This document shows, piece by piece, positions 594 through 48,619 of a DNA stretch of 64,000 nucleotides (position 1 is the stretch's first letter; each line of letters begins with the position of its first letter). Source of the DNA: an uncultured Gammaproteobacteria bacterium (lineage in GTDB: Bacteria; Cyanobacteriota; Vampirovibrionia; LMEP-6097). A program made the translations under genes and the position numbers. The DNA is taken from NCBI GenBank assembly GCA_964551135.1, contig CAZKAT010000005.1, positions 198,522-262,521 of the forward strand, given 5' to 3'. The notes below the pieces were generated by a model. That model searched no databases and was not told where the DNA came from. It was given only the letters and a program-made list of their open reading frames with translations.

Positions 594-643
594 ATAATTA
601 TAATACCAGCAGCTGCAATATTTTACTGTTATAATAAGCGTCG

Positions 644-3268: not shown

Positions 3269-4233
3269 TAGTTATAAATTTTACTCAATAAATAGCAAGC
3301 GTGCACATAAAAAAACTTCGCATCATTAAGATTGCCTGCGTAACATTTGAAGGGTAACATTCTAATAAATTGAGTTGCTTCAAGTATATTCACCAATAGC
3401 ATTTCCTTATCATTTAATTCTTGTTTAAGTCTTCCTTCAAAACAAGAATTAAAACTATTAAAGGATGGAGGTATGCTTAAGTTATGTGATACAGTATTCC
3501 CTTGAACTTGCTTTTCATTATCATTCAAGAAACCATAATGACTACGACTGCATTGTAAGACTTGTGAATAATCAAGAAACTTAGAGTCAATAATGCTCTC
3601 TTCATATAAGTCAATAAAAACTATTCGATTCTCTTTCTCTATATAAAGAGTGTTTTCTAAGGTTGGATTACCATGAATAAATTGTTCTTCTGGAAGATTA
3701 ATATGACTAAAAAAAGTTTCTAGTTTATGGAAATGATTTTCTAAGTTAGGAACAGTTTGTCCATTATAAGAGTATATTTCATAGTTACAAAAATCTGAAA
3801 ATTCTTTTGATGCTTGTTTGGCATCTGCAAGTTTTTGACTAACCTCTTCCTTGAAATAAAGTGAGCAAGCTCCTTTGTTAGCAGCAAAAGTCATGGAGTG
3901 TAGTTCATTAAATGCAGACCAAAGTGCAGAGTTAATTTTTTCAATTTCATTTATTTCTAGATTCTTGTTTATAAAAAGATTCTTGATATCTACAGCATCA
4001 GGGAAGTATTCAATATCAAAATATGCTCTATCACCCTTGTAACCTACTTCTAATACTTTGGGAAACAGGTCAGGGAAGCTCTTTGCGTAACGCTGTAGTT
4101 TTTTTAATTGAGAATACCAGCGCACGTAACCGTATTCACGATCAGATTTGGTGCTAATTTCTTTGCGTATAAAACGTTGGTCCACCAAAAAGGTTGAACT
4201 CAAGGAGCCACCTTTTAATTGCACTATACTCAT
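3268..4233 (-). CDS. Protein with the kinase fold of the aminoglycoside phosphotransferase / choline kinase / AmgK family.
   Basis: Gly-rich loop LKGGSLSSTF. The Brenner-like catalytic loop reads IHGNPTLEN, with Asn where the canonical Asp sits. A FIDLYEE (DFG/DxE-like) segment follows. Its stop overlaps the cyclase start, and the upstream nucleotidyltransferase stop overlaps its start. Confidence 0.6.
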   Translation of the reverse strand: MSIVQLKGGSLSSTFLVDQRFIRKEISTKSDREYGYVRWYSQLKKLQRYAKSFPDLFPKVLEVGYKGDRAYFDIEYFPDAVDIKNLFINKNLEINEIEKINSALWSAFNELHSMTFAANKGACSLYFKEEVSQKLADAKQASKEFSDFCNYEIYSYNGQTVPNLENHFHKLETFFSHINLPEEQFIHGNPTLENTLYIEKENRIVFIDLYEESIIDSKFLDYSQVLQCSRSHYGFLNDNEKQVQGNTVSHNLSIPPSFNSFNSCFEGRLKQELNDKEMLLVNILEATQFIRMLPFKCYAGNLNDAKFFYVHACYLLSKIYN

Positions 4234-4964: not shown

Positions 4965-5269
4965 TAGTAAAATCCTATATAAATCTACAGGCTTAATATT
5001 AGCAGATTAGGGTGGATGAAGGTAAACTTTGGTGTTTTTGGATTGACAACTTAGTAAAGATTCTTTGATCTGGTTATAAAGCAAATACATATATTACTCC
5101 TAATAGCAATGTAGGCATGAAGTAAAGTATTTTTGAAAAATCTAAACCTATCTTGGTTGATATAAACATTAAGAGCTTAGGCTATGAGAGTAAGTTATAT
5201 GGTGATGTCAAAAAAGGCGAGTTAATAGTGATAAGTGTAGTTATAGAGAAGTATAATTATTATAATACG

Positions 5270-5926
5270 ATGAAAAGACTTTTACTTTTTTTATTGATTA
5301 TCATCTCCTGTAGAACTACTTTTGCTAAAAGTTTTTTGGCTAATTTGAATTTTAAAAATATTGATAATGCAACTACACTTGTTACAAATTTAAGTCAAAA
5401 CCCTTCTGGTCAGAATCTGAATGGGTTTGGTATCAGTTTATTTGCAGACATGGCTACAGAAGATTTGCTTGTCCAATTTATTTTAAGTGAGGATGATTTT
5501 AATAATCTTAGTCCTGGAGATACTATTCCTCTTATCTATTTATCGACAACACCAGAACTGGGAATCATTCCAATTGAAGTTGGGCTTGTAAATACCTCAT
5601 TTAACATTACACAAAGAGCTGATATGAAAAAAATAAAAAAAGAAGGTGTTGTAAAAACTGTGACTCAATATATTCAATATGAACCAAGCCCATTAAATGA
5701 AGAAGAATTTGGCAGTTTTACAATAATTCAAAATAATGAAAATATTCTTGAAGCCAATTTTGTAATTAATTATGGAAAATTTATAGCTAGTTATTATAAT
5801 GTAATCATTCAATATGATAGAGGTATTACTTCACAATATATCGTAAGGTCTGATAAAACGAAAAATATTCTTCTAAGAAAAGATCTTAAGATTTCTGGTA
5901 CTTGTGTTGTTGATAAAACGGAATGA
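5270..5926 (+). CDS. Hypothetical secreted protein or lipoprotein.
   Basis: I moved the start to the internal ATG at 5270. The N-terminus is then MKRLLLFLLIIISCRTTFA, a signal-peptide-like stretch with a possible lipobox (IISC). No recognisable domain. Confidence 0.4.
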   Translation: MKRLLLFLLIIISCRTTFAKSFLANLNFKNIDNATTLVTNLSQNPSGQNLNGFGISLFADMATEDLLVQFILSEDDFNNLSPGDTIPLIYLSTTPELGIIPIEVGLVNTSFNITQRADMKKIKKEGVVKTVTQYIQYEPSPLNEEEFGSFTIIQNNENILEANFVINYGKFIASYYNVIIQYDRGITSQYIVRSDKTKNILLRKDLKISGTCVVDKTE

Positions 5927-5954: not shown

Positions 5955-6641
5955 TTAATCTATCCAACCTTGTTCTTTTGCATAAGCCTTAAGTTTATCG
6001 AAATTAGACATGGTTTCTTTAATATAATTCAACTCAAAAATTCTTGAACCTGGAGGTATGTCTTTAATAGCGAGATCAAAAAAATCTAAGAATTCTGTTA
6101 CAAGTTCTTTTTCATCTACGCAATAATAAGCCACACAAGTCCTACCCTCTATAACAAGATCATCATGATCATTATTGTTCTTTGTCATTGCTTCTATCAA
6201 AAAATTAATATCCTGAATAGTTTCTATTCTATATGTTCCATCATCATTATAGGGCGCTCCTAATTTCTCTTGACCGTAAAATCCAAATGAAGCATAGAAA
6301 TTAGCTTGATACGGATTTCTTATAACTGTTAATTTAAGTCCATAGGCTTCCTCATAATACTCGGAAAAAACAAACTTACTTAGGTCATCTTGGTCATTAT
6401 TTATAAAAAACTGTATTAAACACATTATGCAAAATATTGCACAAGAAACATAATAACCATGACCTACCATAGTTAAAGCTTTGCCGTCGTATTCACGTTC
6501 CCATGCGAATTGGCCATAATTAGGTATGTTAGAATCACAGGGTTTTTCTCTATTAGTAATTTGAAAGAAGGGTTCCCTATCGTAATTTTTAAAATAACCA
6601 TTAACTACATCGATAGGTTTTTTACGAGTTATATTAAACAT
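5955..6641 (-). CDS. Hypothetical protein co-transcribed directly downstream of the giant gene. It may be a partner or immunity-like protein for the giant protein's C-terminal domain.
   Basis: Its start codon (6641..6639) is separated from the giant gene's TAA stop (6645..6643) by one nucleotide. No recognisable motif. It has one hydrophobic segment (YYVSCAIFCIMCLIQFFI). Confidence 0.5.
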   Translation of the reverse strand: MFNITRKKPIDVVNGYFKNYDREPFFQITNREKPCDSNIPNYGQFAWEREYDGKALTMVGHGYYVSCAIFCIMCLIQFFINNDQDDLSKFVFSEYYEEAYGLKLTVIRNPYQANFYASFGFYGQEKLGAPYNDDGTYRIETIQDINFLIEAMTKNNNDHDDLVIEGRTCVAYYCVDEKELVTEFLDFFDLAIKDIPPGSRIFELNYIKETMSNFDKLKAYAKEQGWID

Positions 6642-6642
6642 T

Positions 6643-9600
6643 TTAAATACCTGGATTATCCTTATATAAAGGGAAAGTTGTAATTATAGAATTCTCTTGT
6701 TTTACATTTGTCGACCTTGTTGGAACTTGTATGCGATTAGAATATAATTGGTCTGAAGGATATTTATTAAAGGACTTAGACTGTCCGATGTTTCTATTAT
6801 ATTTTTTCTGAAAAACAGTATCTAGCTTATTGCTTCCTGCAAATCCTCTATTAGAACTTGTTGAATTTATAATTAGATCCTCAATAAGCTTGACAATATT
6901 CTCAGAACTATAAAATTTAGTGTCGATTTTATCGCTGCCAGCTAATATTCTAGGGATTATTGTTCTCCAGCCATGATTTTCCAGGACATGCTGTAATCCA
7001 CTATAAGTTAACCAATACACCTTATAATTTCTCCATTCCTCTCCAACAATAGATTGTTTAGCATCCCTTGACTCAAAAATTCTAAAAGTTCCTTTTTCTC
7101 TTACACCATGATTTGAATATACAATGTGATCTGCTAAAGAATTACAGAAACCTTTTGCTATAGTAGTTGGTGAACCTCCTTGTTGATTGGCATAATTAGA
7201 ACTAACTGTCACAGTTTCGGGTAAAACTCTTCTCAGATCATCACCGATTGATCCTAATTCATTTGGATATAATGGATAGTTACCATAGCTTGTGCTAACT
7301 CCACTAGCTCTCATCTCAGCATAAGTAAGATTCGCCTGAAAAGCAAAATCAACTATTTCATTCAATGCGGTCGTACTTGAAACAGGTAAAGGACCAAGAA
7401 GTTTTAATCTATTTTCAATTTCATTTGTTATACAAATTGGTATAAAATTACTTTTTTTAGTAAGTTTGACTATCGGTACTCGTTTTATAATCTCGTCCGA
7501 GTCTACATCTGGGAATAAATAAGCCCAATCTTCGTCCATAAGTAGACCCGTATTAGGGATTTCTATACCGTTAGGAATAATAGCAGGCAAGGTTGTTTTG
7601 TAGGAAGTAAGTGATTTTTTGCTTCCATTATCATCAACCGTGAACTCATATTTACCTGATTCTTCAAGCTGTGCAAGATTAATTAGACCACCTTGTATCC
7701 TATTACATGAACCATTGTATTCATCTTCACAAATTACAATCTGACCTTTGTTTGTGGAACTAATAATTTCAAGGCTATATTTCTGTCCTTGTTCTAATAT
7801 AGTGGCTATATTACCAGTCCCGTCTTTATATTTAAGTTCAATATATTTTGTTCGAGTTCCTGCTCCTACTAGACTCATGAAAGGAATCACCTTGCGTTCT
7901 TCATATATTTCGCTAGCACTAGAACTAAGATTTACCTTTTCTGTTTTATTTTCAAGAACAACTTTATATAAGAAGTATCCAGCTGCTACCGTTACACCAG
8001 CAAACACAAATAATGGCACCTCAATTGGAGCTAATATAAAGCTAGCTCCTGCCAATGCAACTCCACCACTAACTGCTACTAAAGCTTGACTGTCATTTGA
8101 AGTATCATCATTTAATAGTAGTTTTTGATCAACCCCAGCCGTTTGCTTACTTGTCAAGATCGCTTTTTTACTTACAGCAGCTTTTTCGCCTGGAGTAGTA
8201 ATATCTAGTTCCGGGTCACCTTCTTGATAAGTAGTTATTTCATAACTTAATTCTCTCGCAAAACCGTTTTCTAGATTAATGAGTGACTGAAACTTTGCTT
8301 CATTTCCTTCTTCTCCAAATTCTAGGAAATCATCGTACTTAACTTTTAGAACAGGATCATCAATAATAAAGAACTCCGCAGTCTGACTTAATCTCTGATT
8401 ATCAAAGTATGCTTCTAGAATATATTCTTTAATATCTTCGATCTGCTTAAATGGAACAATGGTAGAAATATTATAAGTATACTCATCAGTGTTAATAGTT
8501 GGATTTACAGAGCTTACTGTTACTAGGTTTAATGCTTCTTTATTACTAGCTTTATCTATCAGTTTGAAACTGATTTTATTAGCTTCTTCATCTTTAATGC
8601 CTGTAAATGTAATTGTTCTATTGAAAGTATAATCTTCACCAGCTTTAGCATAGATTACATTTGGTTCACCACCATTGTTACCGGAGCCTTGATCACCCAG
8701 ATCATTTATTCCATTGATACCGAAAGTTATGATAGGTTCTGTATCACCCACCAACATAAATCTACGTGAGACTGGTAGATTCCTTACTTCTCTTCCTGGC
8801 TGTGGTGTATGTATTAATTGAGCATTTAATATATATTCTGATCCTGCCTTGCCAGATGTAATATCTTTTAAATTTACTTCTAAGTATTTTCCGTCTAAAT
8901 TTGAAATCCGATTTGATATATAAATTCCAAGTGGATCTATAAGATTATCAGTATTGGTGCTTAGATCATCTATATATAGCTCTACTCCATAAATGGATTC
9001 TGGATCAGGCTCTGTAGTAATGATGACTTTGTAATCCTTGGCTGCTGGAACAGGGTTTGAAATATTTGCTAATAATGCATTATTGAAAATGATATCCCCA
9101 TCAGCAATATTTTTTAAATAAGTTACACCGCAAACTACTGCAGTATTAGTATCAGAATCGGAACTAATAACAGAAGGGTCTGCATTGACTTTAGATACAA
9201 TAAAATTAAAAGTAACTTTATTTGTATTTTCTGGTATATCTAATCTGCTAAGTAAGAGATATCCTTCTCTTACATTCTTGATCGTATAATTAGGAACATC
9301 TAATTCTATACTCTGTCCATCAATTGTTTCAAAATCTGCATATGAATATGCTTGACCATGATTAAAGGTATTGTTGGTAGCTAAATCATCTTGTTTAACC
9401 CATAATCTAGCTCCTTTTCTACTTGCAGATTCAAATTTTACTTTTAGATTTCTGATTTCATTAATATCTGAACTGATATGAGAATGTCTGCGTTTGCTAA
9501 GTGAATCGTTAGTTTCATTCGGAAGTTCAATCCAGCACCTGTTTTGAAAGTCTGCTTTAATTTGTACTTTACGAGTTCGATTCGGATCATTTTCACTTAC

Positions 9601-12600
9601 GAAATAATATTCTTCTACTGAACTAGGATCATCATCAAAGATTTTAGCTAAATATGCATCCTTACTGCGTAATAATTTCATTGATATAGAATCTGCATCA
9701 TTGAATTTGTCTTTGAATTCTTGCGGTGCATTCTTAGTTAGATTTACCTTCATGAAGTTTCTAACCTTAGTATTTACATTAGATAAATAATCCCGACCAA
9801 TGATCTCGCCAGTAACAATTAAAGGAAAACCAATTGCTCTATTAGTTTCATCGAACAATTGGATTTCCATTTCCAGTGGATCAACTGATTTATGTAAAAT
9901 ATTAGAAAAATAAGTCTCTAGCAATAAATCTTGTTTATTATTTGTTTGCTTAAGAGTAACTTTTGGATATTTAGCAACTGTTTGTGATTCTTCGAATTGT
10001 GGATAGTCAATAAAATTAACTTTCTTGTTTAGATAAGTGAGATCATCAGAAGAATAAGAAGATAGGTAATTTTTGTCATAAGAACTATCGCTATAACCAC
10101 CTATTAATTCAATTTGCAGGTTTTTATGGGTCATAGCTAGTACCGCAAACGGCATACCAATTTTTTGTAATTTATCTACTTCGGTTAAGCTTTTATTTTT
10201 TATAAGAGCATTGTTACCTTTATCAATAAAGAAATTTGCCAACATTGAGAAATGCTTTGAATTATTACTTAGCTCTTGAATATCTATAGTTTCTGCTTGA
10301 GGCGCAGCATCAAAGACTAAGCTTGGAATATTATTGTTGTCCTCGTATATACCTGCTGGAATATCTATCCTTCCATGCTCACCTTTCCGGTAGCTATAAG
10401 TAATGCTGCCATATTCAGGGTTATATCCTGCTGCAAATCTAAAATCAATAAACTCAGTTATTTCTTCATCGAATTCATAATCACCAAATAAATGTATATC
10501 ATTTATATTTTGATAAGTTATTCTTGGACTTGAAAGATCCAAATTTGCTGGTTCAAAAATAATTTTGTCTGCTGATATATCATAGTTTTTTAGTTGTACT
10601 GCTTTGGGAGCAATTCGGTATCTCTCAATATCGTAACTGTTGTATGTATCACTTTCTCTATAAGCGACGTTATCAAAAGTAATAGGACCAGTATAAAATC
10701 CTTTTGCAGCAAAATAAGATGTCATATCCATTTTCAACTCTAAATCAGCTGATTCTCTGAAAATAGTACCTCCATTGTCTGACCCTAAAGAAGTATATTT
10801 TGTTTCCCAGTATGTTTCGGGGGATGTATCTAAACTGCCTGACGATAGAAGTGATGATCTACTGATTTCAAATCTCATTTCATCTAAACTAACTAAACCT
10901 ATTTTATTTCCCAGTCGATCATATTTTGTAGTGGTGAGATACTTTAGATATTTTGATTCTGCTCCAGCTTCCTCTTTATCGGATGCATCTCTTCTGTGGT
11001 AAAGAGTCAATTCAAACTTTTTAGGTGAATGCGAAGTGTGGTGTTTATCATCACTGATTTCTTGAAAATTTCCAATAAACATAAGTGGAAGTGGGGTTTT
11101 ATTTACTTCTAGTAGATAGTTAGTCGATGATAATAAATCATTTTCATTTGTTGAATATGAATTAGAGAATAAATTAATTCCTAAAGAATCTCCAGGCTTT
11201 ACATAAATTCCAGTGGAAGAAGGATTATAAACATTCAAGTGTAAATTATAGAGATACTTAGCTTGTGTTCCAGCCGTTGATTGTGGAATTAAGGAATAAG
11301 TATTTTGATTATTAATGATTAGTTGTCTATTAGCAACATCGTTTGAAATATAATAAAATTTAAAATTATTAATACTTGAGATTGGAAGATAAGATTGTAC
11401 TGTTGCATCAATTGTAATGCTTGTAAGAAGGCTACCATTACTCAATGTTGTATTGGGGATTGTAACAATACTATTAACATCTATTGTATTATCGCCAGGA
11501 GTAATCCAAATCTCGATATCGCCTTCAATTGCTGTATCAGTAAACTGACCCAATGCGACATTTCCAGTAATTGAATCAAACTCAACGTCATTATGGAATC
11601 CATAGTAACCAAGAGGCCATTGATCACTTATTGTCTCAGAAGAAAGATCAAAGAATTTCAGTTGACCTTTTTTTGAAGAATTTGAGCTATTGAAATTGTT
11701 CCAGCTAATGTAATGGGTGGTTGGAGAACGTCCTACAATGTTGTATCCAAAATTATATGTATAATAGTCTTCTGTTTCATATAAAGACCATGGATAAGTG
11801 AGTGATTTATGAATAATTGACCTGGAGTCACGTTGAGATACTAGATTTGAATTAAGAGCCTTGTAAAGTATTGTTGGTTGATTCATTTTAAAGTTTGCTT
11901 CTGTTGAACTAACTTCACCACTGTTATCAGAATTGACATCACATACTGCTAGATCAAAATTAAGAACAAATGGATAACCTTGTTTTGCTTCAAAATGTCC
12001 ACTAGTATTTGTAATTAGTCCTGAAGTCGGTGCATAAAATGGAAGGACTTGTAAACTTTCAATATCGTAGGCATTATTCGGGAAGGGTTTAGAGATTAAT
12101 GAAATATTATTGTATAGATAGTATAGGCATTCTTTTTGACCCGGATAATAACATCTTAAGTCATCCTCATCAAAAGTTTGTCCTTTAGGGCAGAAGAACT
12201 CGAATTTTCTCTCCCCTTTAATTAGATTTAATGAGTTGAATTTTGAAACGTTAGATTCATTATTAGATGATGAAATAAAATAAGCATTACTATAATATTG
12301 ATTACCTGCTTTATCTATAGTTCCAACTTCTACAAAATTAACATCTGGCTCTTGTAAGATATCTTTTTCCAATAATTCTATTGCAAACTCAGCAAGTCCA
12401 GGATCATCAGAGTCAATAATAAGATTTCCTTCCTTATATTCATTGCTATTCAATCTATATATAACCTTAGCTATATTTTCATCTTGTACGGTACCTGAAA
12501 CGATGATCTTAGAGTGTTTGTAAATAGAATGATTTACTGGTGTTTCTATTTCTAAGAATGGAACAGTGGAGTCAAGTATAACTTTGTGAGGTCCAATATT

Positions 12601-15600
12601 AATTACTTTACCATTGGGCAAAGTAGCTTTATACGTAAGAGTATTTTCACCTTCATTAAGCTTTGCTATTAATATTTTTTCTTCTGAATTTGCTTCTGTA
12701 ACATTCGGATTTATATTTTTATATGATTGAATTACTGCGTCTGAATTATAGACAATGAATTCTTTAATGCGTTTAGAGATTTTTACTGGAATTTCATATT
12801 GATATTGATTTATATAAGTTGTTTTATTGAGTATTGGTGTTAACCCACTGAAATCAATAGAGCTAGCTGATTTATTGGTTTTGCTCACCCCAAACTCTAT
12901 GCTCTTCGAACCCTCCTGCTCTAAACTGTCATAAACCAACACATCTAAAATATAATTACCAGGTTGTAGGTATAAATCATTGAAAGTTTCTGTGAATTTC
13001 GTTGGTACTTGATCAGTAAAGGTTTTGCTGAATACCACATCATTACTACCTTTGGCGATAACTCTAATCTCTAATCTTTGTAAGGAAACCTTAGTGTCTA
13101 CTTCACCTGCGATATTGATTATCTCCTCATCATTAATTTGAATATCACTTGCTTGTTTATTGATAGTCAGACTTGTAATTAAAGGTGGAGGTGTATCCTT
13201 AATTTCCAGTGGTTTAAGAGTGAAGACTATTGGTTTAGCTTCATCTGTTGTTTTCACCCAGAACTTAATCTGGAATATTCCTAAATTATTATATGTATGT
13301 TTCTTGTCAGTTACTGTATTCTTCAGGAAGTCAGCAGTAGGATTGTTTCCTGAATAAGTCCAGCTGGTGCCATCACCAAAATCCCAGCCAAAGGATTCTA
13401 TAGTGGTCTTATAGATTGCTTTACTCTTGACTTTTAGATCTGCAATGAAGCCTGGATTAGGAATATCTTTCGGAGCTAAATTGGCAATAATCGGTGTGAA
13501 GGCTACATGGGAAGGCAGCTTCGCTATAGTTACTGTGCCGGCAGATACTGTCCAAGTCTCAGAATGCCCGTCTGGGAAGGTTGCATTAACTTCTAGACGT
13601 GGATCATATTCCCCTTGAACGTAGATATGTTTACGATTAGTTAAAGCTACTAGATCAATATATTGATTAATCAGTACTGGTCCGAGGTCAATTGTTCCTG
13701 TCTCTTGAATGCCATCTCCGTATATAAACTTATAATTCAAAGAACTAGGTTTATTGTTCTTAGCAGTAATAATTTTCACCTTGGCTTTGAAACTTATTTC
13801 TTTATTGCCATTAAGCTCAGGCTCAAATATTTTATCAGCGTTAATGACGCTTAATGAAGCTACCAAGTTTTGTCCAGGTCTAATGATTTGTACTGTATCA
13901 GATTGAGCGGTATCAGAATTATTGAAGAAATCTTTTACTGTTAACCCTGCTCTATAGATCCCTGGTTCTTTTCTTGGACCTATATAATAAGTGCTGGCAT
14001 TAGGGTCATAATTGGATGCGATATTAATGAAATCATCTGTTGGATTAGCTTCTAGGCTCTTATATTCTGTAATCCATGAATATGAACCAATACCATCGTT
14101 GACTTGAGAAGCAAAGGTGGCTCTATTTGGATCATAACTATATTGACCAAGGAAGCTCGCCTTATCTGTTGGATTATCACTTGGTTCAAGTATTAATTTA
14201 TTAATATTCTCAGTTACTACTTTGGCTTTAGGGAGAGCATCATCGATTATATGAATCGCAGTTGAAACTTCTCCAACATAAGTTAAATAACTAATTGGAT
14301 CATAATAACGAGCTTTAATTAATAAATTATAGTCTCCTATGTAATCTCTTAATACAGGGAATTTGATTTGCTCTGTTCCTACTTTAATCCATGGCAGATC
14401 TATAGTCTTGGTTGATAAAGTTTCATTTTCAGCATTAAGTAGTTTAACTTCATATTCCCAATTAGCTTTGATTGTTGGATTTGGAGCGTTGCTCTGTAAT
14501 TGAATTATGAAGTCTTGATTATTAGCTTGCTCAATAAATTCAGTAGGAGATTGGATGCTTAACGTCACATTGTGATCTTCATTGAAGCAAACACCATGTT
14601 TAATTGGTAGTGCATTATTCTTTAGATAATCAAAAGTAGTTTGATTAATTGATGCATATTTACCACTGCCAAATGCTTGATTATAAGGTTTAACCAAATT
14701 ATTTTTTATATAATCTTCCATCTGTTCATCAGATTTACTTCCATTAGTTAAATAGAAATAAGTGCAATGAGTACCTGGTTTGAAATTAGTTTCTTTGAAA
14801 ATAATTTCAGCAGCGCCTTCGCTATTAGAATTAGCTGTGTCTGATTGCAGAATAATATACTTATCCTTGTATATTCCTGCGGTTGATTTTCTGTTGATAT
14901 GAACAGCTTGAAGCTTGGTGTTTGAAGTGGTATTCATCGATATACCAACACTCTTTCTTGTTTTAGTACTGCCACCAAATAAATTTAATTTGAGATTGTT
15001 AATGAATGGTTTGCTTGGAGCTGTATAAATAGTTACAGCTTTAATTTGTACGCCATCGTCTGAAGGACCAATAACTTTAATTTTTAGATTGAATGCACCA
15101 GAACTTACATTAAAAGGCTCAGATACGATTTCATAGAATTTATTGCCAGCAGCTGGATCTTTGGAGAGCACTAATGCATCGTTAACCCAGACTCGAATCC
15201 CGTTAAATCTATTGCCATTGAGATGTAGCATTAACCTGGCTTGATTAGCAGTATAAGTCTGTAACTTAAGTTTTTTAGATATTATTAGAGCATCATTAGA
15301 GAATACTGTAGGATAACCATCTTTAAAATAATGATAAGCATTGCCAAAGCCAGTTGATTCATCAAAGAAGAAATAATCTGTATTGAAATCTATATTCAAG
15401 TCTATTTTTTTGGAATTACCATCAAGTACATCAAATGTTTTTTCAGTTGGATTAAATAGATTGTTTGTATAAACTTTATCGACTATATAGAATTTATTGT
15501 CAGCTGCTTTTTGACTAACTCTGATAGTTATATTTGTTCCTTTGAAATCTTCACTTCTGAGTTTAGCTAGAATTTTATTGCTATCAATAAACGTGCTTGG

Positions 15601-18600
15601 TCTATCTATGAAATCACCACTGTCAATTTTAATCCTTACATTATGTTCATTCTTACAGAAATTCGAACCTATGATTTCTATTAAAGCTCCTCCCTTTTCT
15701 TTGGTATGTGCAATATTACCCATAATGAAGTTTATGCTTGTAACTTTGAGACCTGTTCCGTAACTTGTTCTACAGTCACAACTGCCACCACTGCAAGCGC
15801 CTGCTACAGGTAAACTTAAATCACGTATCGGAGTACTATTGTTATCGTTTTTATGATCCGTGATTGAATCAAAATCGCTTATAGGGTCATCTGTAGACTG
15901 TTGCTTTAAACTTGCTTTCAGGTCATTTGGAATATTTTCATCGCCATTCTCTTGATCTATTGGTGTTTTGTAGACTGGAACTGAGTTGCTGATTGCACTT
16001 GCAAAATCACCAACTATAATAGCTTTGCCATAAGCATTCGCTACTTGACCTTTAGCATCAACTACAGTCAATTTGATGTAATAAACGCCTTTACTAGTAT
16101 AGGTATGCGTTGTACTAATACTATTAGAATCGCTACCATCTCCAAAATCCCAATGATAACTTTGTATCTCATAATTTTTAGGATCATAACTTCCATCAGC
16201 ACTCACTGAAACTAAATTAGAGCCAGTATCATGTGTGATTTGTAATTTAGGAATTGGGATTTGATTTGGTAAAACTGTTAAAGTTTCACTCAATACTGGC
16301 TTGTCATCTAATTGATGAACTAATTGATATTGACCAGCTTCTGTGAAGCTTTGTGGAGCATCCAATATACTTGAATTAACTTCGCCATAGGCACTATTAA
16401 AATCATTAGATTTATCTATCAGAACAGTCTTGCCGCTAAGATCTTTTTCATAACCGCGATATATCCATTGATATTGTTCGTTATTAATAGGTCCAATAGT
16501 TACTCCTTTAACAGAACTTGAATCAGTTTCCTCTATTCCAATTAAATTATCAAAACTAAGTGAGCCGACAACAGGTATTTTGGTAGTTACTACTACTGAT
16601 TCTAAGTTTTTAGTACTGAGAATTTTCTTTTCGGCATCATCCTTTCTATAAACACTAAGTACAGGTGAATAAACACCAGGCTTACTATAATTATGAGTCA
16701 GTTCAACTCCATTCGCTGTAAAACCATCTCCCCAATCCCAATTGTAATCCAAGAATTCCGTTCCAGCGTCAAATGGAGTTGCATTGCGGTAATAAATAGA
16801 TGAAGCTCCAGAGAAGCTCATTATCGAACTGCCAAGTACTAAATCATCTACTCTGTTTTTTAACTCAGCATTCAGAATTGGTGGTGGTTCTAGAATGATT
16901 AGTTGAGAACTATAATTACTAATGAGTCCTTTAATGTCAGTAACTTTTAGCACAATATCATAGCTGCCAAATTTATTGAATTTATAAGTAAATTTCGGAC
17001 TAGTTGCCTGAATCAATTGAATTGCTTGATTAGAATTTGCTACTGGGTTATGGTAATTAATAGTCCAGTAATAGTTTCCTATATTGCCGTTAGGATCAGA
17101 GCTAAATAGAGCATCTAATTCAATATTACACGAAAATGTTCCATCAATCTTATATTCAAGGGCTACTTGTCCATTCTCACTAACTCTGCAATCAAAGACA
17201 TTTTTTACAAATTTAGCAACTGGTGGATAGTTTTTCTCTTCCACTACTATATCTTGAAGATTTATTTGAGAGCTTAAGCCTCTAGCATCAGTAACTTTTA
17301 ACCATACTTTGTAAGTACCTGGATCGGTAAAAGTATGACTAATTGTTTTGCTTGATGCTGTGATTGCATTATTGAAGCCCCATTCGTAAGTCAAAGTACC
17401 ATTTTCTGGATCGGAGGACTCGGATGCATCAAAATTTATACTAAGAGGTATTTCACCACTATATTTATCGGCTTTAGCTTTAGCGATGGGAGCTTTATTG
17501 GCTTCTGCAACATTTATGGTTTGTGTATAAGTAGAAGCTTTAAATGATTGTTCGTAAATTTCTAAAGTTACGGTATGTGGTCCGGCTTGATTGAGGTAGA
17601 ATTTGCTGTTTTGATAAATTTGCTCGCGAGGTTCTTCTATTGCCGAATCAATGATAAATCGATATGTTAGATTCTGTCCATTTTGGAAACCACTATTATC
17701 AGCTAGTAATGAAATAAAATTTTGAGCTTCTATGTATTCATTTAATATAGAGAAAGAATTTCCTCTGCAAGCTTTACTGGTACAAGTAACAAATCTCTCT
17801 TCTTCACAGCTATTGACTTGCAATTGTTCGGCAAGGATTCCTCCACAGTTTGCTTGACAAACTCCTTGATTCACCCAAGTATTCCTTGATTCAAGACAAA
17901 CTACACTTTTACTGATAATAATAGGACTTAATTGATACTTTTCACTTAGTCTTCCGTCACTAGTGCGTACTATCAGTGAAGGAATGAAAGTGCCTGGAGA
18001 TCTATATATGTGTGGAACAAGTTTATTAATATTAGTTTCTGCAATTCCATCTCCATAGTCCCAAAGATAAATTAGATTCTCATGAGAATTATTGCGTGGA
18101 TCAAAACTTCCTGAAGCATTGAAATTTATAGTAGCAATATTATTGTCTCTATCATCCACACGAGTATCAATGAGACCTTGAGCTATAGGCTTATCACCTT
18201 GGACTTGAGTAATAATAATAGGGTCCAAAAATCTAAAAACTTTATCAGTTAAATCTGGAGAGTAAGCTATTAATAGTGGCGTATACCTCCCAGCTTTTTT
18301 ATATGCATGGACTATAGATTGTGGAAATTCTGCAAATGGAGCAGTGAAGCTATAATAGTCTTTATAAAAATTATCACCATAAAAAAGAAAAACAGTAAAT
18401 TTTCTCTTGCTTAATGGCATATATGGATTGTCACTGCTAATAGAGTAAGTTATTTTAGAATCCAGTAGGGGAGCCTGGTTGATCCTAGAGAGTAGATTAA
18501 CTTTAAGGTCGCTAGCTTTAACAAACTCATCATAAGGAATGATAGTTTCTTTACTTATTATAATAGGATTGAGAGTAAACTTTGTACTTGTTCTACCATC

Positions 18601-19305
18601 AGGAGTTTTTACAATTAAATTAGGTATATAAGTTCCATGAGCAGTATAAGTATGATCAATTAAAGCTTTGGCTTCGGTTACAACTCCATCCCCAAAATCC
18701 CAGGCATAAGTCATGGCATTGCCATTAAATAAATTTGCTGGATCATAGCTGGCTTTAGCGTCAAAGTTTATTTTAACGACATTGTTTTGATTGTCTTCAA
18801 GTTTATTCGTTATAATGCCGCTTGCTATTGGATTTGGTAGAATAAGTTTTTCAACTTTAATAGGATCCAAGAACTGAAATAGTTTGCTTTTAAGATCATT
18901 CGAATAAATTATTAGTAGAGGTTTATAAAGACCTGGTTTGCTATATTTATAACTAATTAGGGGGAATTGCTCATAGCTTGCTGTAAAGCTTTTGTATGAC
19001 GTATAGAGATTGTCTCCGAAGAATAGAAATACAGTAAATTTGCTATTCCCAGGAGCAATACCATTGTTGGATGCTTGAATTTGAAATTTAATATCACTAT
19101 AACCTTGAGCAAAATTATTTTCCCTATTGATTATATTTGCTGCAAATTTTATTTCATTGGGATTGGGAGTATCTGCATAAGCTGGTAGGAGAAAGAGTTC
19201 CAGGTGAATTTGTTGTAAACTAATTACTACTATAATAAAAATTCTTAAAGCTAAAAATCTTAGCTTCGAAAGAATTTTTTTCATTCGTAGGTTATTTTCG
19301 TTCAA
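6643..19305 (-). CDS. Giant secreted or surface protein (4220 aa) with multiple PKD-like repeats, Cys-rich segments, a C-terminal transmembrane segment and a ~437-aa C-terminal tail.
   Basis: Single uninterrupted 12.66-kb ORF. N-terminal signal-peptide-like stretch (RIFIIVVISLQQI). At least six PKD-type W-x-[FYW]-G-D-G motifs: YAWDFGDG, YLWDYGDG, YNWDWGDG, YHWDFGDG, FGWDFGDG and YEWGFNNA. There is a tandem ~213-aa repeat near the N-terminus. The hydrophobic stretch ALVAVSGGVALAGASFILAPIEVPLFVFAGVTVAAGYFLY sits about 440 aa from the C-terminus. Confidence 0.85.
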   Translation of the reverse strand: MNENNLRMKKILSKLRFLALRIFIIVVISLQQIHLELFLLPAYADTPNPNEIKFAANIINRENNFAQGYSDIKFQIQASNNGIAPGNSKFTVFLFFGDNLYTSYKSFTASYEQFPLISYKYSKPGLYKPLLIIYSNDLKSKLFQFLDPIKVEKLILPNPIASGIITNKLEDNQNNVVKINFDAKASYDPANLFNGNAMTYAWDFGDGVVTEAKALIDHTYTAHGTYIPNLIVKTPDGRTSTKFTLNPIIISKETIIPYDEFVKASDLKVNLLSRINQAPLLDSKITYSISSDNPYMPLSKRKFTVFLFYGDNFYKDYYSFTAPFAEFPQSIVHAYKKAGRYTPLLIAYSPDLTDKVFRFLDPIIITQVQGDKPIAQGLIDTRVDDRDNNIATINFNASGSFDPRNNSHENLIYLWDYGDGIAETNINKLVPHIYRSPGTFIPSLIVRTSDGRLSEKYQLSPIIISKSVVCLESRNTWVNQGVCQANCGGILAEQLQVNSCEEERFVTCTSKACRGNSFSILNEYIEAQNFISLLADNSGFQNGQNLTYRFIIDSAIEEPREQIYQNSKFYLNQAGPHTVTLEIYEQSFKASTYTQTINVAEANKAPIAKAKADKYSGEIPLSINFDASESSDPENGTLTYEWGFNNAITASSKTISHTFTDPGTYKVWLKVTDARGLSSQINLQDIVVEEKNYPPVAKFVKNVFDCRVSENGQVALEYKIDGTFSCNIELDALFSSDPNGNIGNYYWTINYHNPVANSNQAIQLIQATSPKFTYKFNKFGSYDIVLKVTDIKGLISNYSSQLIILEPPPILNAELKNRVDDLVLGSSIMSFSGASSIYYRNATPFDAGTEFLDYNWDWGDGFTANGVELTHNYSKPGVYSPVLSVYRKDDAEKKILSTKNLESVVVTTKIPVVGSLSFDNLIGIEETDSSSVKGVTIGPINNEQYQWIYRGYEKDLSGKTVLIDKSNDFNSAYGEVNSSILDAPQSFTEAGQYQLVHQLDDKPVLSETLTVLPNQIPIPKLQITHDTGSNLVSVSADGSYDPKNYEIQSYHWDFGDGSDSNSISTTHTYTSKGVYYIKLTVVDAKGQVANAYGKAIIVGDFASAISNSVPVYKTPIDQENGDENIPNDLKASLKQQSTDDPISDFDSITDHKNDNNSTPIRDLSLPVAGACSGGSCDCRTSYGTGLKVTSINFIMGNIAHTKEKGGALIEIIGSNFCKNEHNVRIKIDSGDFIDRPSTFIDSNKILAKLRSEDFKGTNITIRVSQKAADNKFYIVDKVYTNNLFNPTEKTFDVLDGNSKKIDLNIDFNTDYFFFDESTGFGNAYHYFKDGYPTVFSNDALIISKKLKLQTYTANQARLMLHLNGNRFNGIRVWVNDALVLSKDPAAGNKFYEIVSEPFNVSSGAFNLKIKVIGPSDDGVQIKAVTIYTAPSKPFINNLKLNLFGGSTKTRKSVGISMNTTSNTKLQAVHINRKSTAGIYKDKYIILQSDTANSNSEGAAEIIFKETNFKPGTHCTYFYLTNGSKSDEQMEDYIKNNLVKPYNQAFGSGKYASINQTTFDYLKNNALPIKHGVCFNEDHNVTLSIQSPTEFIEQANNQDFIIQLQSNAPNPTIKANWEYEVKLLNAENETLSTKTIDLPWIKVGTEQIKFPVLRDYIGDYNLLIKARYYDPISYLTYVGEVSTAIHIIDDALPKAKVVTENINKLILEPSDNPTDKASFLGQYSYDPNRATFASQVNDGIGSYSWITEYKSLEANPTDDFINIASNYDPNASTYYIGPRKEPGIYRAGLTVKDFFNNSDTAQSDTVQIIRPGQNLVASLSVINADKIFEPELNGNKEISFKAKVKIITAKNNKPSSLNYKFIYGDGIQETGTIDLGPVLINQYIDLVALTNRKHIYVQGEYDPRLEVNATFPDGHSETWTVSAGTVTIAKLPSHVAFTPIIANLAPKDIPNPGFIADLKVKSKAIYKTTIESFGWDFGDGTSWTYSGNNPTADFLKNTVTDKKHTYNNLGIFQIKFWVKTTDEAKPIVFTLKPLEIKDTPPPLITSLTINKQASDIQINDEEIINIAGEVDTKVSLQRLEIRVIAKGSNDVVFSKTFTDQVPTKFTETFNDLYLQPGNYILDVLVYDSLEQEGSKSIEFGVSKTNKSASSIDFSGLTPILNKTTYINQYQYEIPVKISKRIKEFIVYNSDAVIQSYKNINPNVTEANSEEKILIAKLNEGENTLTYKATLPNGKVINIGPHKVILDSTVPFLEIETPVNHSIYKHSKIIVSGTVQDENIAKVIYRLNSNEYKEGNLIIDSDDPGLAEFAIELLEKDILQEPDVNFVEVGTIDKAGNQYYSNAYFISSSNNESNVSKFNSLNLIKGERKFEFFCPKGQTFDEDDLRCYYPGQKECLYYLYNNISLISKPFPNNAYDIESLQVLPFYAPTSGLITNTSGHFEAKQGYPFVLNFDLAVCDVNSDNSGEVSSTEANFKMNQPTILYKALNSNLVSQRDSRSIIHKSLTYPWSLYETEDYYTYNFGYNIVGRSPTTHYISWNNFNSSNSSKKGQLKFFDLSSETISDQWPLGYYGFHNDVEFDSITGNVALGQFTDTAIEGDIEIWITPGDNTIDVNSIVTIPNTTLSNGSLLTSITIDATVQSYLPISSINNFKFYYISNDVANRQLIINNQNTYSLIPQSTAGTQAKYLYNLHLNVYNPSSTGIYVKPGDSLGINLFSNSYSTNENDLLSSTNYLLEVNKTPLPLMFIGNFQEISDDKHHTSHSPKKFELTLYHRRDASDKEEAGAESKYLKYLTTTKYDRLGNKIGLVSLDEMRFEISRSSLLSSGSLDTSPETYWETKYTSLGSDNGGTIFRESADLELKMDMTSYFAAKGFYTGPITFDNVAYRESDTYNSYDIERYRIAPKAVQLKNYDISADKIIFEPANLDLSSPRITYQNINDIHLFGDYEFDEEITEFIDFRFAAGYNPEYGSITYSYRKGEHGRIDIPAGIYEDNNNIPSLVFDAAPQAETIDIQELSNNSKHFSMLANFFIDKGNNALIKNKSLTEVDKLQKIGMPFAVLAMTHKNLQIELIGGYSDSSYDKNYLSSYSSDDLTYLNKKVNFIDYPQFEESQTVAKYPKVTLKQTNNKQDLLLETYFSNILHKSVDPLEMEIQLFDETNRAIGFPLIVTGEIIGRDYLSNVNTKVRNFMKVNLTKNAPQEFKDKFNDADSISMKLLRSKDAYLAKIFDDDPSSVEEYYFVSENDPNRTRKVQIKADFQNRCWIELPNETNDSLSKRRHSHISSDINEIRNLKVKFESASRKGARLWVKQDDLATNNTFNHGQAYSYADFETIDGQSIELDVPNYTIKNVREGYLLLSRLDIPENTNKVTFNFIVSKVNADPSVISSDSDTNTAVVCGVTYLKNIADGDIIFNNALLANISNPVPAAKDYKVIITTEPDPESIYGVELYIDDLSTNTDNLIDPLGIYISNRISNLDGKYLEVNLKDITSGKAGSEYILNAQLIHTPQPGREVRNLPVSRRFMLVGDTEPIITFGINGINDLGDQGSGNNGGEPNVIYAKAGEDYTFNRTITFTGIKDEEANKISFKLIDKASNKEALNLVTVSSVNPTINTDEYTYNISTIVPFKQIEDIKEYILEAYFDNQRLSQTAEFFIIDDPVLKVKYDDFLEFGEEGNEAKFQSLINLENGFARELSYEITTYQEGDPELDITTPGEKAAVSKKAILTSKQTAGVDQKLLLNDDTSNDSQALVAVSGGVALAGASFILAPIEVPLFVFAGVTVAAGYFLYKVVLENKTEKVNLSSSASEIYEERKVIPFMSLVGAGTRTKYIELKYKDGTGNIATILEQGQKYSLEIISSTNKGQIVICEDEYNGSCNRIQGGLINLAQLEESGKYEFTVDDNGSKKSLTSYKTTLPAIIPNGIEIPNTGLLMDEDWAYLFPDVDSDEIIKRVPIVKLTKKSNFIPICITNEIENRLKLLGPLPVSSTTALNEIVDFAFQANLTYAEMRASGVSTSYGNYPLYPNELGSIGDDLRRVLPETVTVSSNYANQQGGSPTTIAKGFCNSLADHIVYSNHGVREKGTFRIFESRDAKQSIVGEEWRNYKVYWLTYSGLQHVLENHGWRTIIPRILAGSDKIDTKFYSSENIVKLIEDLIINSTSSNRGFAGSNKLDTVFQKKYNRNIGQSKSFNKYPSDQLYSNRIQVPTRSTNVKQENSIITTFPLYKDNPGI

Positions 19306-19455: not shown

Positions 19456-20847
19456 GTGAATAAAATGAAAAACAAACTTAGTCTTATAGTCTTTTTATTT
19501 CTAGCAATAATCCTAACAATAAAGCAAGTTCAGGCTGTAGATCCTGCTCCAGCAACTAATTTCATTACTATATACACCACAGTTTTCCATCCGGGCCCAC
19601 AATTATTAGCTAATGGGTCAACAGTGCAATGGGATTTTAATGCGGATGGGACAGTTGATTCTACAGATGTCAATGGCTCATATGTCTTTCCTGGACCTGG
19701 TACTTATAATGTAAAGCTCATTACGACAAATAGTTTAGGAGCTAAAAATAGTACTAAAACAATTACTATAAATGAAACTTTAGTTCTTCCACCTCCACCC
19801 GCTCCTTCAAATTGGATGAACACTGCTTGGAAAGAGCGAGTTAAGCTAACGGTGCCGAGTGGCAAAGTAACTGAAGATTTGATTGATTTCCCTGTTTATA
19901 TAAAACTTGCAGATTTAGGAGATGGTCTCTTTAGTAAAACTAATACAAATTGTGGAGATATTAGAATAACCGACAATACTGGTATTACTGAATTACCAAG
20001 GGAAGTTGTTGCTTGTAATATAACTAATAAAACAGGCGAATTATATTTTAAAGCCAGTTCTTTGAAAACAGCTAGCAATAATGATTTCTATATTTACTAT
20101 GGTAATCCTGCTGCTATTAATTATGATAATACTGCCGTTTATGGAAGAAATAAAGTTTGGACTTCTGATTTTGAGTTAGTTGCTCACTTTGAAGAAAATC
20201 CAGGAACAAGTCTTTTTGTAAATTCTACTGGTGGTATTGGAGGTGCTTATACTAATCTTGGAGGCTTGGCGACATCTGCCGGCTTGGTTGGCAACTCTTT
20301 AGATTGTTCTGCTGTATCTCCTGTCGGATATCTAGACTTAGATCCTTTTAGTGCAAATCAAAGTAGAAATTTTGCCTTCTCTGCTTTTGTTAATTTTAGT
20401 TCAACTGCTGTCCCCCAAGTATTTTTTGAATATGCCACACCTGGCGGGCTCAATACAAGACGTGTAGCTGCTATGTTTAATCCAGGGAAAATCAATTGGA
20501 ATCATAATAATTATGATGGCATCGCAGAGCTTAGTACGACTCTGTCTATAGGCACTTGGTATCATATGAGTATTAATTCTTTAGAAGAAGATAGTGCTCA
20601 TTCAAAACTTAGTACATGGATGGACGGTGTAAGCAACATTTCTAAGCCTGGATATGATTCTGATAATATTACTGCTAATTTAGGAGTCATTTGTGCTAAT
20701 AGACTTTTTGGAGAATCTTATAATGGAAAGATAGACGAATTAAGATTTTATAAGAACTTTAAATCTAATGGCTGGATGATTGCAGAAGACAGTAATTTAA
20801 GATCACCAAGTACTTTTTATATAGTAGGCACTAAAGAGTCATTATAA
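19456..20847 (+). CDS. Secreted protein with a PKD domain, a DUF2341-like domain and a LamG / ConA-like lectin domain.
   Basis: Signal peptide KLSLIVFLFLAIILTIKQVQA (the ATG at 19465 is a likelier start than the GTG at 19456). PKD block VQWDFNADGTVD...GTYNVKLITTNSLG. DUF2341-like segment WKERVKLTVPSGKV...DFPVYIKL...DIRITD...YFKA...DFYIYYGNP. LamG-like W-x-H-x block WYHMSINS...STWMDGV. It is transcribed divergently from the giant gene. Confidence 0.6.
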   Translation: MNKMKNKLSLIVFLFLAIILTIKQVQAVDPAPATNFITIYTTVFHPGPQLLANGSTVQWDFNADGTVDSTDVNGSYVFPGPGTYNVKLITTNSLGAKNSTKTITINETLVLPPPPAPSNWMNTAWKERVKLTVPSGKVTEDLIDFPVYIKLADLGDGLFSKTNTNCGDIRITDNTGITELPREVVACNITNKTGELYFKASSLKTASNNDFYIYYGNPAAINYDNTAVYGRNKVWTSDFELVAHFEENPGTSLFVNSTGGIGGAYTNLGGLATSAGLVGNSLDCSAVSPVGYLDLDPFSANQSRNFAFSAFVNFSSTAVPQVFFEYATPGGLNTRRVAAMFNPGKINWNHNNYDGIAELSTTLSIGTWYHMSINSLEEDSAHSKLSTWMDGVSNISKPGYDSDNITANLGVICANRLFGESYNGKIDELRFYKNFKSNGWMIAEDSNLRSPSTFYIVGTKESL

Positions 20848-45702: not shown

Positions 45703-45710
45703 TATTAAAC

Positions 45711-47431: not shown

Positions 47432-47488
47432 ATTATCTCAAGGATAATATCATATTATGGTTATTATTTCAGTAATAATTGGTCTATT

Positions 47489-48538: not shown

Positions 48539-48619
48539 TAGTTTAATAATACAGTAATGTCATTTATGTTGAAAATGACGCAGACGCGTGCGACGTCAGG
48601 GTGCGTTATAATTAGCTCC

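Follow-up and report, generated by a model that had tools for sequence, protein, structure and literature searches.

A giant PKD/Ig-like scaffold gene ending in a probable polymorphic toxin/immunity cassette of a new family

The giant gene and its downstream partner

A 64-kb stretch of DNA from an uncultured bacterium, probably one of the Gammaproteobacteria (contig CAZKAT010000005.1, positions 198,522 to 262,521; this whole stretch is called the window below) encodes on its minus strand a giant PKD-domain protein, whose gene is followed directly by a small open reading frame (ORF). A preliminary description of the locus had proposed that the two form a polymorphic toxin and immunity pair. This reading is supported by cassette swapping between related loci, by orphan arrays and by stand-alone modules, and we consider it quite probable that the locus represents a polymorphic toxin/immunity system of a new family, in which the pair is exchanged as a cassette (Table 1).

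The giant gene is a single uninterrupted ORF of 4220 codons when counted from the TTG, a length that, judged by the stop-codon frequency in DNA of 33% GC, chance could not produce. As an identical public contig (ENA ERZ3430527, NODE_26, 188 kb) has the gene called at 4213 amino acids (aa), which corresponds to the ATG at 19284, the latter is taken as the probable start. The preliminary description had reported the 4220-aa form with a signal peptide; the ORF is indeed intact, with 4213 aa as its probable length, and by eye and hydropathy its N-terminus resembles a long Sec leader, consisting of MKKILSKLR, a hydrophobic run and the sequence AYA/D. The leader is unusually long and could alternatively be a signal anchor. 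The relatives P0004 and P0007 begin with a leader of matching design, so that by the same heuristic three giants have a Sec-like N-terminus. The small ORF starts, as first described, one nucleotide (nt) after the stop codon of the giant gene, at the junction TAA-a-ATG.

Table 1. Features of the giant locus in the window and of cassettes on related contigs; residues of the giant are counted from the TTG
Feature	Position	Strand	Residues and remarks
Giant gene	6643..19305	-	TTG 19305; probable start ATG 19284 (4213 aa); stop TAA 6645-6643
Sec-type leader	19174..19284	-	residues 8-44; sequence and Kyte-Doolittle score 2.16
PKD-bearing scaffold part	13192..18807	-	residues 167-2038; Pfam, self-comparison and own-profile search
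Second variable scaffold block	8812..12882	-	residues ~2142-3498; identity profile against P0004
Conserved last scaffold segment	8206..8811	-	residues 3499-3700; Ig-like; pLDDT 80-90 for 3560-3655
Hydrophobic 43-residue stretch	7957..8085	-	residues 3741-3783; Kyte-Doolittle 19-window maximum 2.07
Pre-toxin part of the tail	7159..7956	-	residues 3784-4049; Ig-like β-sandwich(es) 3820-3954, helical 3955-4049
CT domain, N-half	6969..7158	-	residues 4050-4112; conserved; DNA similarity to L001 ends at 6969
CT domain, C-half	6646..6968	-	residues 4113-4220; hypervariable; 40% identical to P0001
Block without DNA similarity to L001	6023..6968	-	C-half of the CT domain and ~206 partner codons
Partner ORF, candidate immunity protein	5955..6641	-	228 aa; isoelectric point (pI) 4.6; without leader or conserved transmembrane segment
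CT/partner pairs on L008	4433-4952/5137-5585; 5805-6167/6265-6797; 6860-7432/7564-8128		three tandem pairs
Y1-associated modules	L009 3323-5770; L010 2-3123; L011 525-3511; L002 1-831
Partner lengths			window 228 aa; L001 238; L004 242; L005 216; L006 383; L007 244; L009-11 225; L013 222; P0007 contig at least 164

Relatives of the terminal domain and of the partner

Among 15 billion predicted proteins we recovered only about 10 members each of the C-terminal (CT) domain family and of the partner family. A word-index search of 5.8 billion clusters gave a single relative each for the tail (P0001) and for the small ORF (P0002), and a search of 1.84 billion representatives with a HMMER profile of the tail gave eight true relatives: the full-length giants P0004 (4147 aa) and P0007 (4007 aa), the fragments P0001, P0005 and P0006, and the short proteins P0003, P0008 and P0009. 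A further candidate, P0010, was discarded as a spurious match of a repeat protein. A scaffold-based scan of GTDB genomes added the giant L013 (at least 3959 aa), which like P0004 and P0007 is colinear with the giant of the window. Two of the giants come from metagenome-assembled genomes (MAGs) labelled 'uncultured Gammaproteobacteria bacterium'. Scans of genomes and metagenome contigs with the tail alignment and a second metagenome scan with the scaffold alignment gave no further relatives, a word-index search with the domain alignment gave one extra fragment only, and a tblastn search of plasmids and phages with the CT domain found no match.

In L005 (positions 1-70), TAGTTTTAAAAACTTAGGGGTTGACA occurs twice in direct orientation just ahead of a truncated remnant of 764 aa, which is equivalent to residues ~3559-4220 of the giant; the two copies could represent the end of a mobile element, a promoter duplication or an assembly artefact. 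In L007 (2-1744) the scaffold ORF stops at 841, and the pre-toxin region and CT domain restart 87 nt further on in a separate 271-aa ORF (P0008); the gene could be split or a pseudogene, or the sequence could contain an error.

The alignment of all relatives covers the last ~170-190 residues of the giant, and this CT domain falls into two parts. The N-half is conserved, being 90% identical to P0001 and 40-70% identical to all other members, and contains the motifs G-F-C-x-S-L-A-x-H-I, FRIFES, YKVYWL and H-x4-H-G. The C-half is hypervariable, with an invariant F, a T-x-F and a T-x-F-P-L set within otherwise divergent sequence. The family as a whole is characterized by the succession G-[YF]-C-x-S-[LM]-A-x-H-I, F-R-x-F-E-[SA], Y-x-V-[YF]-W-L, H-[IV]-x3-H-[GS] and F, followed by I-x3-I-x2-S, R-G, T-x-F-Q, Q-[VI]-x-T and I-x-T-[AGT]-[FY]-P-L.

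All nine loci have a homologous partner ORF directly next to the CT gene, with a gap of 1 nt or an overlap of 1-8 nt. The partners form one fast-evolving family, 11-34% identical to the copy in the window with the exception of P0002 (90%), and share the motifs G-x-I-x-W, Y-Y, N-N-x3-D-G-Y-I-Y, Y-x-G-H, T-P-E-E-L, C-F-E-E and D-[IV]-P. Every partner is acidic (pI 4.6-5.2) and leaderless, and a conserved hydrophobic helix is lacking. No member of the partner family has a Pfam, NCBIfam or PADLOC match, or a sequence or profile match in the PDB.

Exchange of the CT C-half together with the partner

Comparison of the window with the related metagenomic contig L001 reveals an abrupt junction within the CT domain. 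The two DNA sequences are 82.6% identical over window positions 7957-6969, and no similarity is detectable over 6968-6023. At the protein level, identity is 81% over the first 317 residues of the tail, 41% over the last ~120 and 24-26% between the partners. Identity at third codon positions falls from 0.70 before the junction to 0.36 after it, where 0.32 is expected from composition alone. As third positions in the block are saturated, recombination rather than local fast evolution is the likely cause, and the sequences indicate that the exchanged block is an anciently diverged allele lying beside recently shared sequence. Similarity to L001 resumes at 6022-5964, in the last ~22 codons of the partner. 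Given that synonymous sites are also saturated there (third-position identity 0.39), the resumed similarity reflects constraint on the protein, and we rejected these residues as a downstream recombination breakpoint. Downstream of the partner the window and L001 differ altogether.

The preliminary description had named swapping of the C-terminal domain with its downstream ORF between related loci as the pattern to look for, and this is the pattern observed. The variable C-terminal domain that it postulated does exist, but the unit of variation is smaller than the 437-residue tail and consists of the last ~108 aa of a conserved domain of ~170 aa. There are in fact two nested variable units, namely the whole tail, which differs between species, and the CT C-half with the partner, which differs between close relatives.

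The affinities of the individual segments point in the same direction. The N-half of P0001 is 90% identical to that of the window and 53% to that of P0004, a distant giant with a pre-toxin region only 29% identical, whereas its C-half shares 40% identity with the window and 48% with P0004. The type of partner goes with the C-half: the partners of L001 and L004 are closest to each other (42% identity). For the C-half of the window the nearest counterpart is that of the stand-alone protein P0003 (50%), and the two corresponding partners rank second in similarity among all pairs (34%). In all, the three most similar pairs of partners are also the three most similar pairs of C-halves. Over eight loci, a Mantel test relates partner identity more strongly to identity in the C-half (r=0.55, p~0.011) than to that in the N-half (r=0.28, p~0.10). 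The conserved N-half probably provides the homology needed for exchange of the cassettes.

Orphan arrays and stand-alone modules

CT/partner pairs also occur apart from an intact giant. On L008, a 294-kb long-read contig with many frameshifts, remnants of the giant scaffold (108-3462) are followed by three tandem CT and partner pairs, the CT domain being present from its first residues onward in the second and third of them; the layout is that of orphan cdiA-CT/cdiI arrays. P0003 is a 197-aa protein that consists only of the CT domain, with its own ATG and GGGAG upstream of it, and is followed by a partner. On three independent contigs this pair lies between two paralogous Y1 transposases (PF01797), and REP-like repeats (TAGGGCCGTGCT...) follow the partner in the stand-alone modules. 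L002 has a partner gene on its own, which is 90% identical to that of the window and divergent from the N-terminus of a Y1 transposase, with no CT domain upstream. No Y1 transposase is encoded in the window. Y1 transposases may provide a mobilization route for the cassettes.

Predicted activity of the CT domain

In nine sequences that are 28-58% identical to the domain of the window, the residues R, F, E, Y, W, L, H, H, F, T, F, T, P and L are invariant. Persistence of such a set across this range of divergence is typical of an enzyme, and on the strength of the sequences we regard the CT domain as a likely one. The domain is basic (pI 9.0-9.7) in seven of the nine members, opposite the acidic partners. 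Our leading guess, to which we attach roughly a one in three chance, is a metal-independent hydrolase of the RNase type. This tentative assignment draws on the two invariant histidines with the Arg, Glu and Thr, on the combination of a basic CT domain with an acidic partner, and on analogy with the two-histidine reasoning applied to many Ntox families (PMC3482391). Toxins of the BECR/EndoU type and other two-histidine metal-independent RNases have a characteristic fold with catalytic His/His plus Lys/Arg and Thr/Ser; in the present family two His, Arg, Glu and Thr are invariant, but no Pfam or PDB match was obtained, and the AlphaFold2 (AF2) model of the C-half was unusable.

Three other assignments were rejected. 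A zincin or inverted zincin based on H-V-L-E-N-H was dismissed as its Glu is not conserved, and a papain-like peptidase as the main reading because the Cys is not invariant, being absent from P0009. In pore-forming colicin-like toxins a hydrophobic hairpin is buried in a helical bundle at the C-terminus, and the immunity protein is embedded in the membrane; here the partner is soluble, and the hydrophobic stretch is not conserved and is separated from the C-terminus by 437 aa.

Two explanations without a toxin have to be considered against these data. In the first, the CT domain would be a non-toxic maturation or housekeeping enzyme (a papain-like peptidase or a glycan-modifying enzyme) and the partner its chaperone or inhibitor, with the variation stemming from relaxed constraint or antigenic diversification. 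The Cys of the G-x-C-x-S-x-A motif, which is conserved in 9/10 members including L013 and is placed at a predicted helix start with a His downstream, would suit such an enzyme, as would a locus embedded in glycosylation genes. Yet this Cys is missing from P0009, the confinement of synonymous saturation to a block and the incongruent relationships signify allele replacement rather than relaxed drift, and neither tandem orphan pairs nor mobile stand-alone pairs are expected, so that we judge the explanation improbable. A non-lethal pair for self or kin recognition, comparable to IdsD/IdsE of Proteus, with the variable C-half and the partner as identity determinants binding to each other, strikes us as no likelier. 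It would account for the co-variation of the terminal segment with the adjacent gene and for the failure to find a recognizable toxin fold, but the invariant His/His/Arg/Glu/Thr set points to catalysis and not to binding alone, and the partner is cytoplasmic and leaderless whereas the tail is probably exported. Leaderless CT and partner modules adjoining transposases, and a lone partner gene, are moreover typical of toxin/immunity systems.

The hydrophobic stretch and the topology of the tail

The Kyte-Doolittle mean over 19 residues rises above 1.6 at just two places in the giant, in the leader and at residues 3740-3784. The latter correspond to a hydrophobic segment that had been described as ~43 residues long and followed by a tail of ~437 aa; the lengths hold, with exactly 437 residues after the stretch. 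Its sequence, ALVAVSGGVALAGASFILAP-IEVP-LFVFAGVTVAAGYFLYKVV, is split into two halves by a proline-containing motif (..FILAP-IEVP-LFVF..). Strong hydrophobicity is found in two of six sequences, the giants of the window (2.07) and P0007 (2.13), while the other four equivalents carry charged residues (P0004, 1.57; P0005, 1.56; L013, 1.22; L007, 1.04). In an AF2 model of the C-terminal region built with 9 sequences, residues 3656-3819 are without secondary structure (pLDDT, the model's confidence score, 20-30) and lie between β-sandwiches at 3560-3655 (pLDDT 80-90) and 3820-3954 (60-80), after which residues 3955-4115 form helices and a β-hairpin (65-80). The stretch is therefore neither the core of a β-sandwich, a possibility that had been raised against a membrane segment, nor a confident helix. 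With its proline break and its poor conservation it does not establish the transmembrane helix first described, and a pre-toxin transmembrane region is not a conserved feature among the relatives. It may instead be a membrane-inserting, re-entrant hairpin or a lineage-specific linker, and not a conserved type-I anchor. A 113-aa ORF on the opposite strand of its coding region (7748-8089, plus strand) is almost certainly a shadow ORF of the giant gene.

The pre-toxin part of the tail is 79% identical to P0001 and ~20-27% identical to the other giants. Its only fold matches are Ig-like, and no toxin fold of the kinds proposed in the preliminary description was recognized in the 437-residue tail. 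The first domain after the stretch has a Cys pair, CEDEYNGSC, that is conserved in P0004 and P0001. We infer that the tail lies on the same side of the membrane as the scaffold.

The preliminary description had also offered a type-I membrane-anchored mega-adhesin, in which the stretch is a transmembrane anchor and a cytoplasmic 437-residue tail acts with the partner in anchoring, signalling or assembly. This would agree with the cytoplasmic partner and with the strong hydrophobicity of the stretch in the window and P0007 (Kyte-Doolittle ~2.1), but four of the six proteins that keep the same tail are too weakly hydrophobic at this position, and 43 residues with a Pro-rich break would, if they form a hairpin, return the chain to the same side. 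Given that the stretch is not conserved, that Ig-like β-sandwich domains with the conserved Cys pair follow it and that leaderless stand-alone CT genes exist, we disfavor the anchored adhesin and regard it as very improbable; cassette swapping, orphan arrays and stand-alone modules would all be left without an explanation.

Domain organization of the scaffold

The scaffold is acidic (pI 5.0). Pfam detects in the full giant only PKD families, in six PKD_4 stretches (PKD_4, 6.2e-71; PKD, 5.7e-38). A profile made from the protein's own copies defines seven solid PKD-like copies at residues 167-258, 384-471, 606-692, 726-805, 843-910, 1022-1100 and 1967-2038, and neither this profile nor self-comparison finds a copy past residue 2134. 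The ~3700 aa of PKD/Ig-like repeats described at the outset are thus real as regards these copies and not as regards their extent, the scaffold outside them being non-repetitive at the sequence level; of the Cys-rich inserts described with them, one was located, at residues 470-513. Since the confidently modelled C-terminal parts (3560-3655 and 3820-3954) are Ig-like β-sandwiches, the giant is probably an Ig-like fiber throughout, including residues 2100-3500, for which this is an extrapolation.

Conservation along the giant is uneven. Identity to P0004 is 40-73% over residues 1-2140, drops to 15-40% over ~2142-3498, rises to 66-71% over 3499-3693, falls to ~20% from 3694 through the pre-toxin region and reaches 35-38% in the CT domain. 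Over the block ~2142-3498, P0004 and P0007 are as low as 15-30% identical to the giant of the window, with flanks of 50-70%. By analogy with the variable receptor-binding region of CdiA, this block could be a candidate target-binding region. The conserved segment that follows it ends in the motif TTYQEGDPE (aligned, T-[TS]-[YF]-x-[DN]-[GN]-[DN]-P-[ES]), after which all the giants diverge.

A model of the system and its weaknesses

Under the polymorphic toxin interpretation, the giant would be exported by its N-terminal Sec-type leader and would form a long, probably glycosylated Ig-like/PKD fiber on or outside the cell. At its far end would come the variable linker with the hydrophobic stretch, one or two Ig-like domains with a helical region, and the basic toxin domain of ~170 residues, the enzymatic end that is predicted to be delivered into a competitor. 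The acidic 228-aa partner, made in the cytoplasm by translation coupled to the stop of the giant gene, would bind and neutralize the toxin in the producer and its kin. Specificity would be set by the last ~108 residues of the toxin domain and by most of the immunity protein, which are replaced together. The replacement pattern fits homologous recombination with the N-half (GxCxSLAxHI...FRxFES...YKVYWL...HxxxxHG) as the upstream handle, and stand-alone or orphan CT/immunity cassettes could serve as donors. The sequences themselves show the gene architecture, a block replacement with saturated synonymous sites, the constant pairing of the genes, the orphan arrays and the conservation of putative catalytic residues; toxicity, neutralization by the partner, an extracellular tail and a route across the outer membrane are what we infer from this organization.

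A bolder extension appears to us doubtful, though worth stating: the locus might specify a contact-dependent antagonism apparatus independent of the type I, V, VI and VII secretion systems (T1SS, T5SS, T6SS and T7SS), in which a Sec-exported glycosylated Ig-like fiber of ~4000 residues reaches neighboring cells and uses its central block to bind a receptor, a toxin of new fold, possibly an RNase, is carried across the target envelope by the hairpin and the Ig-like and helical pre-toxin region, the N-half acts as recombination handle and Y1 transposases spread the cassettes. Should export and delivery prove independent of known secretion systems, this would constitute a new route of interbacterial antagonism in uncultured bacteria; should they not, the locus would add one more family to an already very large class.

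Several observations weigh against the toxin interpretation. The CT domain and the tail have no Pfam, NCBIfam, PADLOC or PDB sequence or profile match in any family member, and two of the nine CT members are acidic. All five known giants (the window, P0004, P0007, L013 and L008), a thin sample, end in one CT family; unrelated toxin families on one scaffold were found neither among these giants nor among all the fragments, and as all relatives carry the same domain family, the variation is one of type within a family and not an exchange of folds. The sharp junction is seen in one close pair only, between the window and L001, the latter being a 2.2-kb contig with a different downstream context as well. 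A Spearman test of partner against C-half is not significant, the Mantel signal coming from three pairs, and several relatives derive from fragmentary or frameshift-rich assemblies. Finally, the neighbors are glycosylation genes, and no secretion, outer-membrane or processing component was found among them.

Relationship to known toxin and adhesin systems

Polymorphic toxins have been defined to include Sec-dependent forms, and the features of the locus match those described (Zhang et al. 2012, PMC3482391): replacement of the C-terminus, an adjacent co-varying partner, and orphan or stand-alone cassettes. The nearest class comprises the toxins exported by the Sec/type II secretion route, such as the MafB type (PMC3482391), which combine an N-terminal signal peptide, for which the Sec-like leader is a putative counterpart, with features also found here: a long presentation region and a C-terminal toxin with an immediately downstream immunity gene, cassette recombination and orphan cassettes. 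They differ from the present system in its ~3700-aa PKD/Ig-like fiber scaffold, in the lack of a Pfam match for the CT domain and the immunity protein, and in the presence of one toxin family in all members. PKD is absent from the presentation repeats listed for any route (0 occurrences, PMC3482391). No processing protease (HINT, caspase, ZU5 and the like) was detected.

The CdiB/CdiA/CdiI systems of contact-dependent inhibition (CDI; T5SS) offer a multi-thousand-residue filament with a C-terminal toxin and a tightly linked immunity gene, a central variable block, a conserved motif before the variable end, and tandem orphan pairs that keep upstream homology. In contrast, the present giant has no two-partner secretion (TPS) domain, FHA repeats or VENN motif and no cdiB neighbor, and its probable handle for recombination is part of the toxin domain, namely the N-half. 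The E-group nuclease colicins and S-type pyocins with their Im proteins are comparable in that one toxin fold has diversified into immunity-specific types, and in the pairing of a basic toxin with an acidic, coupled downstream immunity protein; the delivery architecture is altogether different, there is no sequence or fold match, and the immunity proteins are of 216-383 aa here against ~85 aa there. The giant adhesins of the T1SS RTX type (LapA/SiiE/MpIBP) and Bap-like proteins are similar in size and in a tandem Ig-like scaffold such as an extended surface fiber would be expected to have. The T1SS RTX adhesins have a C-terminal T1SS signal with RTX nonapeptides, no N-terminal leader and adjacent ABC/MFP/TolC genes, whereas the present giant has a Sec-like N-terminal leader, no RTX matches, no T1SS genes found nearby, and a swappable, putatively enzymatic end domain with a partner. 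Rhs/YD-repeat toxins have a core that ends in PxxxxDPxGL; no Pfam or NCBIfam match to RHS/YD repeats occurs in the giant. By defining domains the locus is thus not CDI, Rhs, LXG, MafB or an RTX adhesin.

Literature searches found no paper describing a polymorphic toxin with a giant PKD-type scaffold. Novelty lies in the toxin family, the immunity family and the scaffold, while the logic of the system is already known. The locus contributes a toxin domain and an immunity family, both extremely rare and absent from curated libraries, and a type of scaffold, a Sec-led giant PKD/Ig-like fiber in a glycosylation island, that lies outside the list of the main survey (PMC3482391). The domain joins a conserved half to a hypervariable one, which varies in step with the partner, and this amounts to a natural map of the immunity-binding surface in a compact system for work on specificity.

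Gene neighborhoods

Four polytopic membrane proteins are encoded near the giant (26221-28434, minus; 28436-30073, minus; 30103-32400, plus; 35338-37098, minus). Among them are two paralogs of ~740 aa with 13-14 transmembrane-like segments and no Pfam match, one PMT-family protein and one with 9 transmembrane segments. The ~740-aa and PMT types adjoin giants in other MAGs (L004, 1325-4491 and 21807-24008; L013, 14803-17028), and genes for GT2, nucleotidyl-transferase, dehydratase, methyltransferase and nucleotide-sugar enzymes are also conserved beside giants. Because the conserved neighbors are PMT-family, polytopic membrane, GT2 and nucleotide-sugar genes, the fiber is probably glycosylated. 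No TpsB, T1SS, T6SS or protease genes were found nearby, and among the neighboring ORFs scanned none was detected as belonging to the ABC, MFP or TolC families; several polytopic membrane ORFs have no Pfam match.

Convergent with the partner gene lies a 257-aa ORF (5153-5926, plus), with 28 nt between the gene ends, an internal Met followed by a lipobox-like LLIIISC, and no Pfam match. It has no counterpart in L001, L004 or L013 and appears to be lineage-specific; at this position L001 runs straight into a nucleotidyl-transferase gene. On the other side, a divergent gene (19456-20847, plus) encodes a 463-aa protein with an N-terminal hydrophobic segment and PKD, DUF2341 and Laminin_G_3 domains, which is conserved upstream of the giant in L004 (4484-5860, 34% identity) and may be an accessory surface protein. 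A gene for an AAA_14/DUF4143 ATPase occurs near the giant locus both in the window (62287-63471, plus) and in L004 (1-1230, minus).

The window is AT-rich (33% GC), with a GC fraction of ~0.40 around 42-54 kb, and contains no rRNA or tRNA genes. It further encodes an asparagine synthase (37147-39066) and sulfate assimilation genes (44410-50215), including a CysN-like GTPase (EF-Tu, eEF1A_C) and a sulfite/nitrite reductase. These genes indicate a free-living metabolism and, together with the gammaproteobacterial label of the relatives, make a reduced genome of the Candidate Phyla Radiation (CPR) type unlikely.

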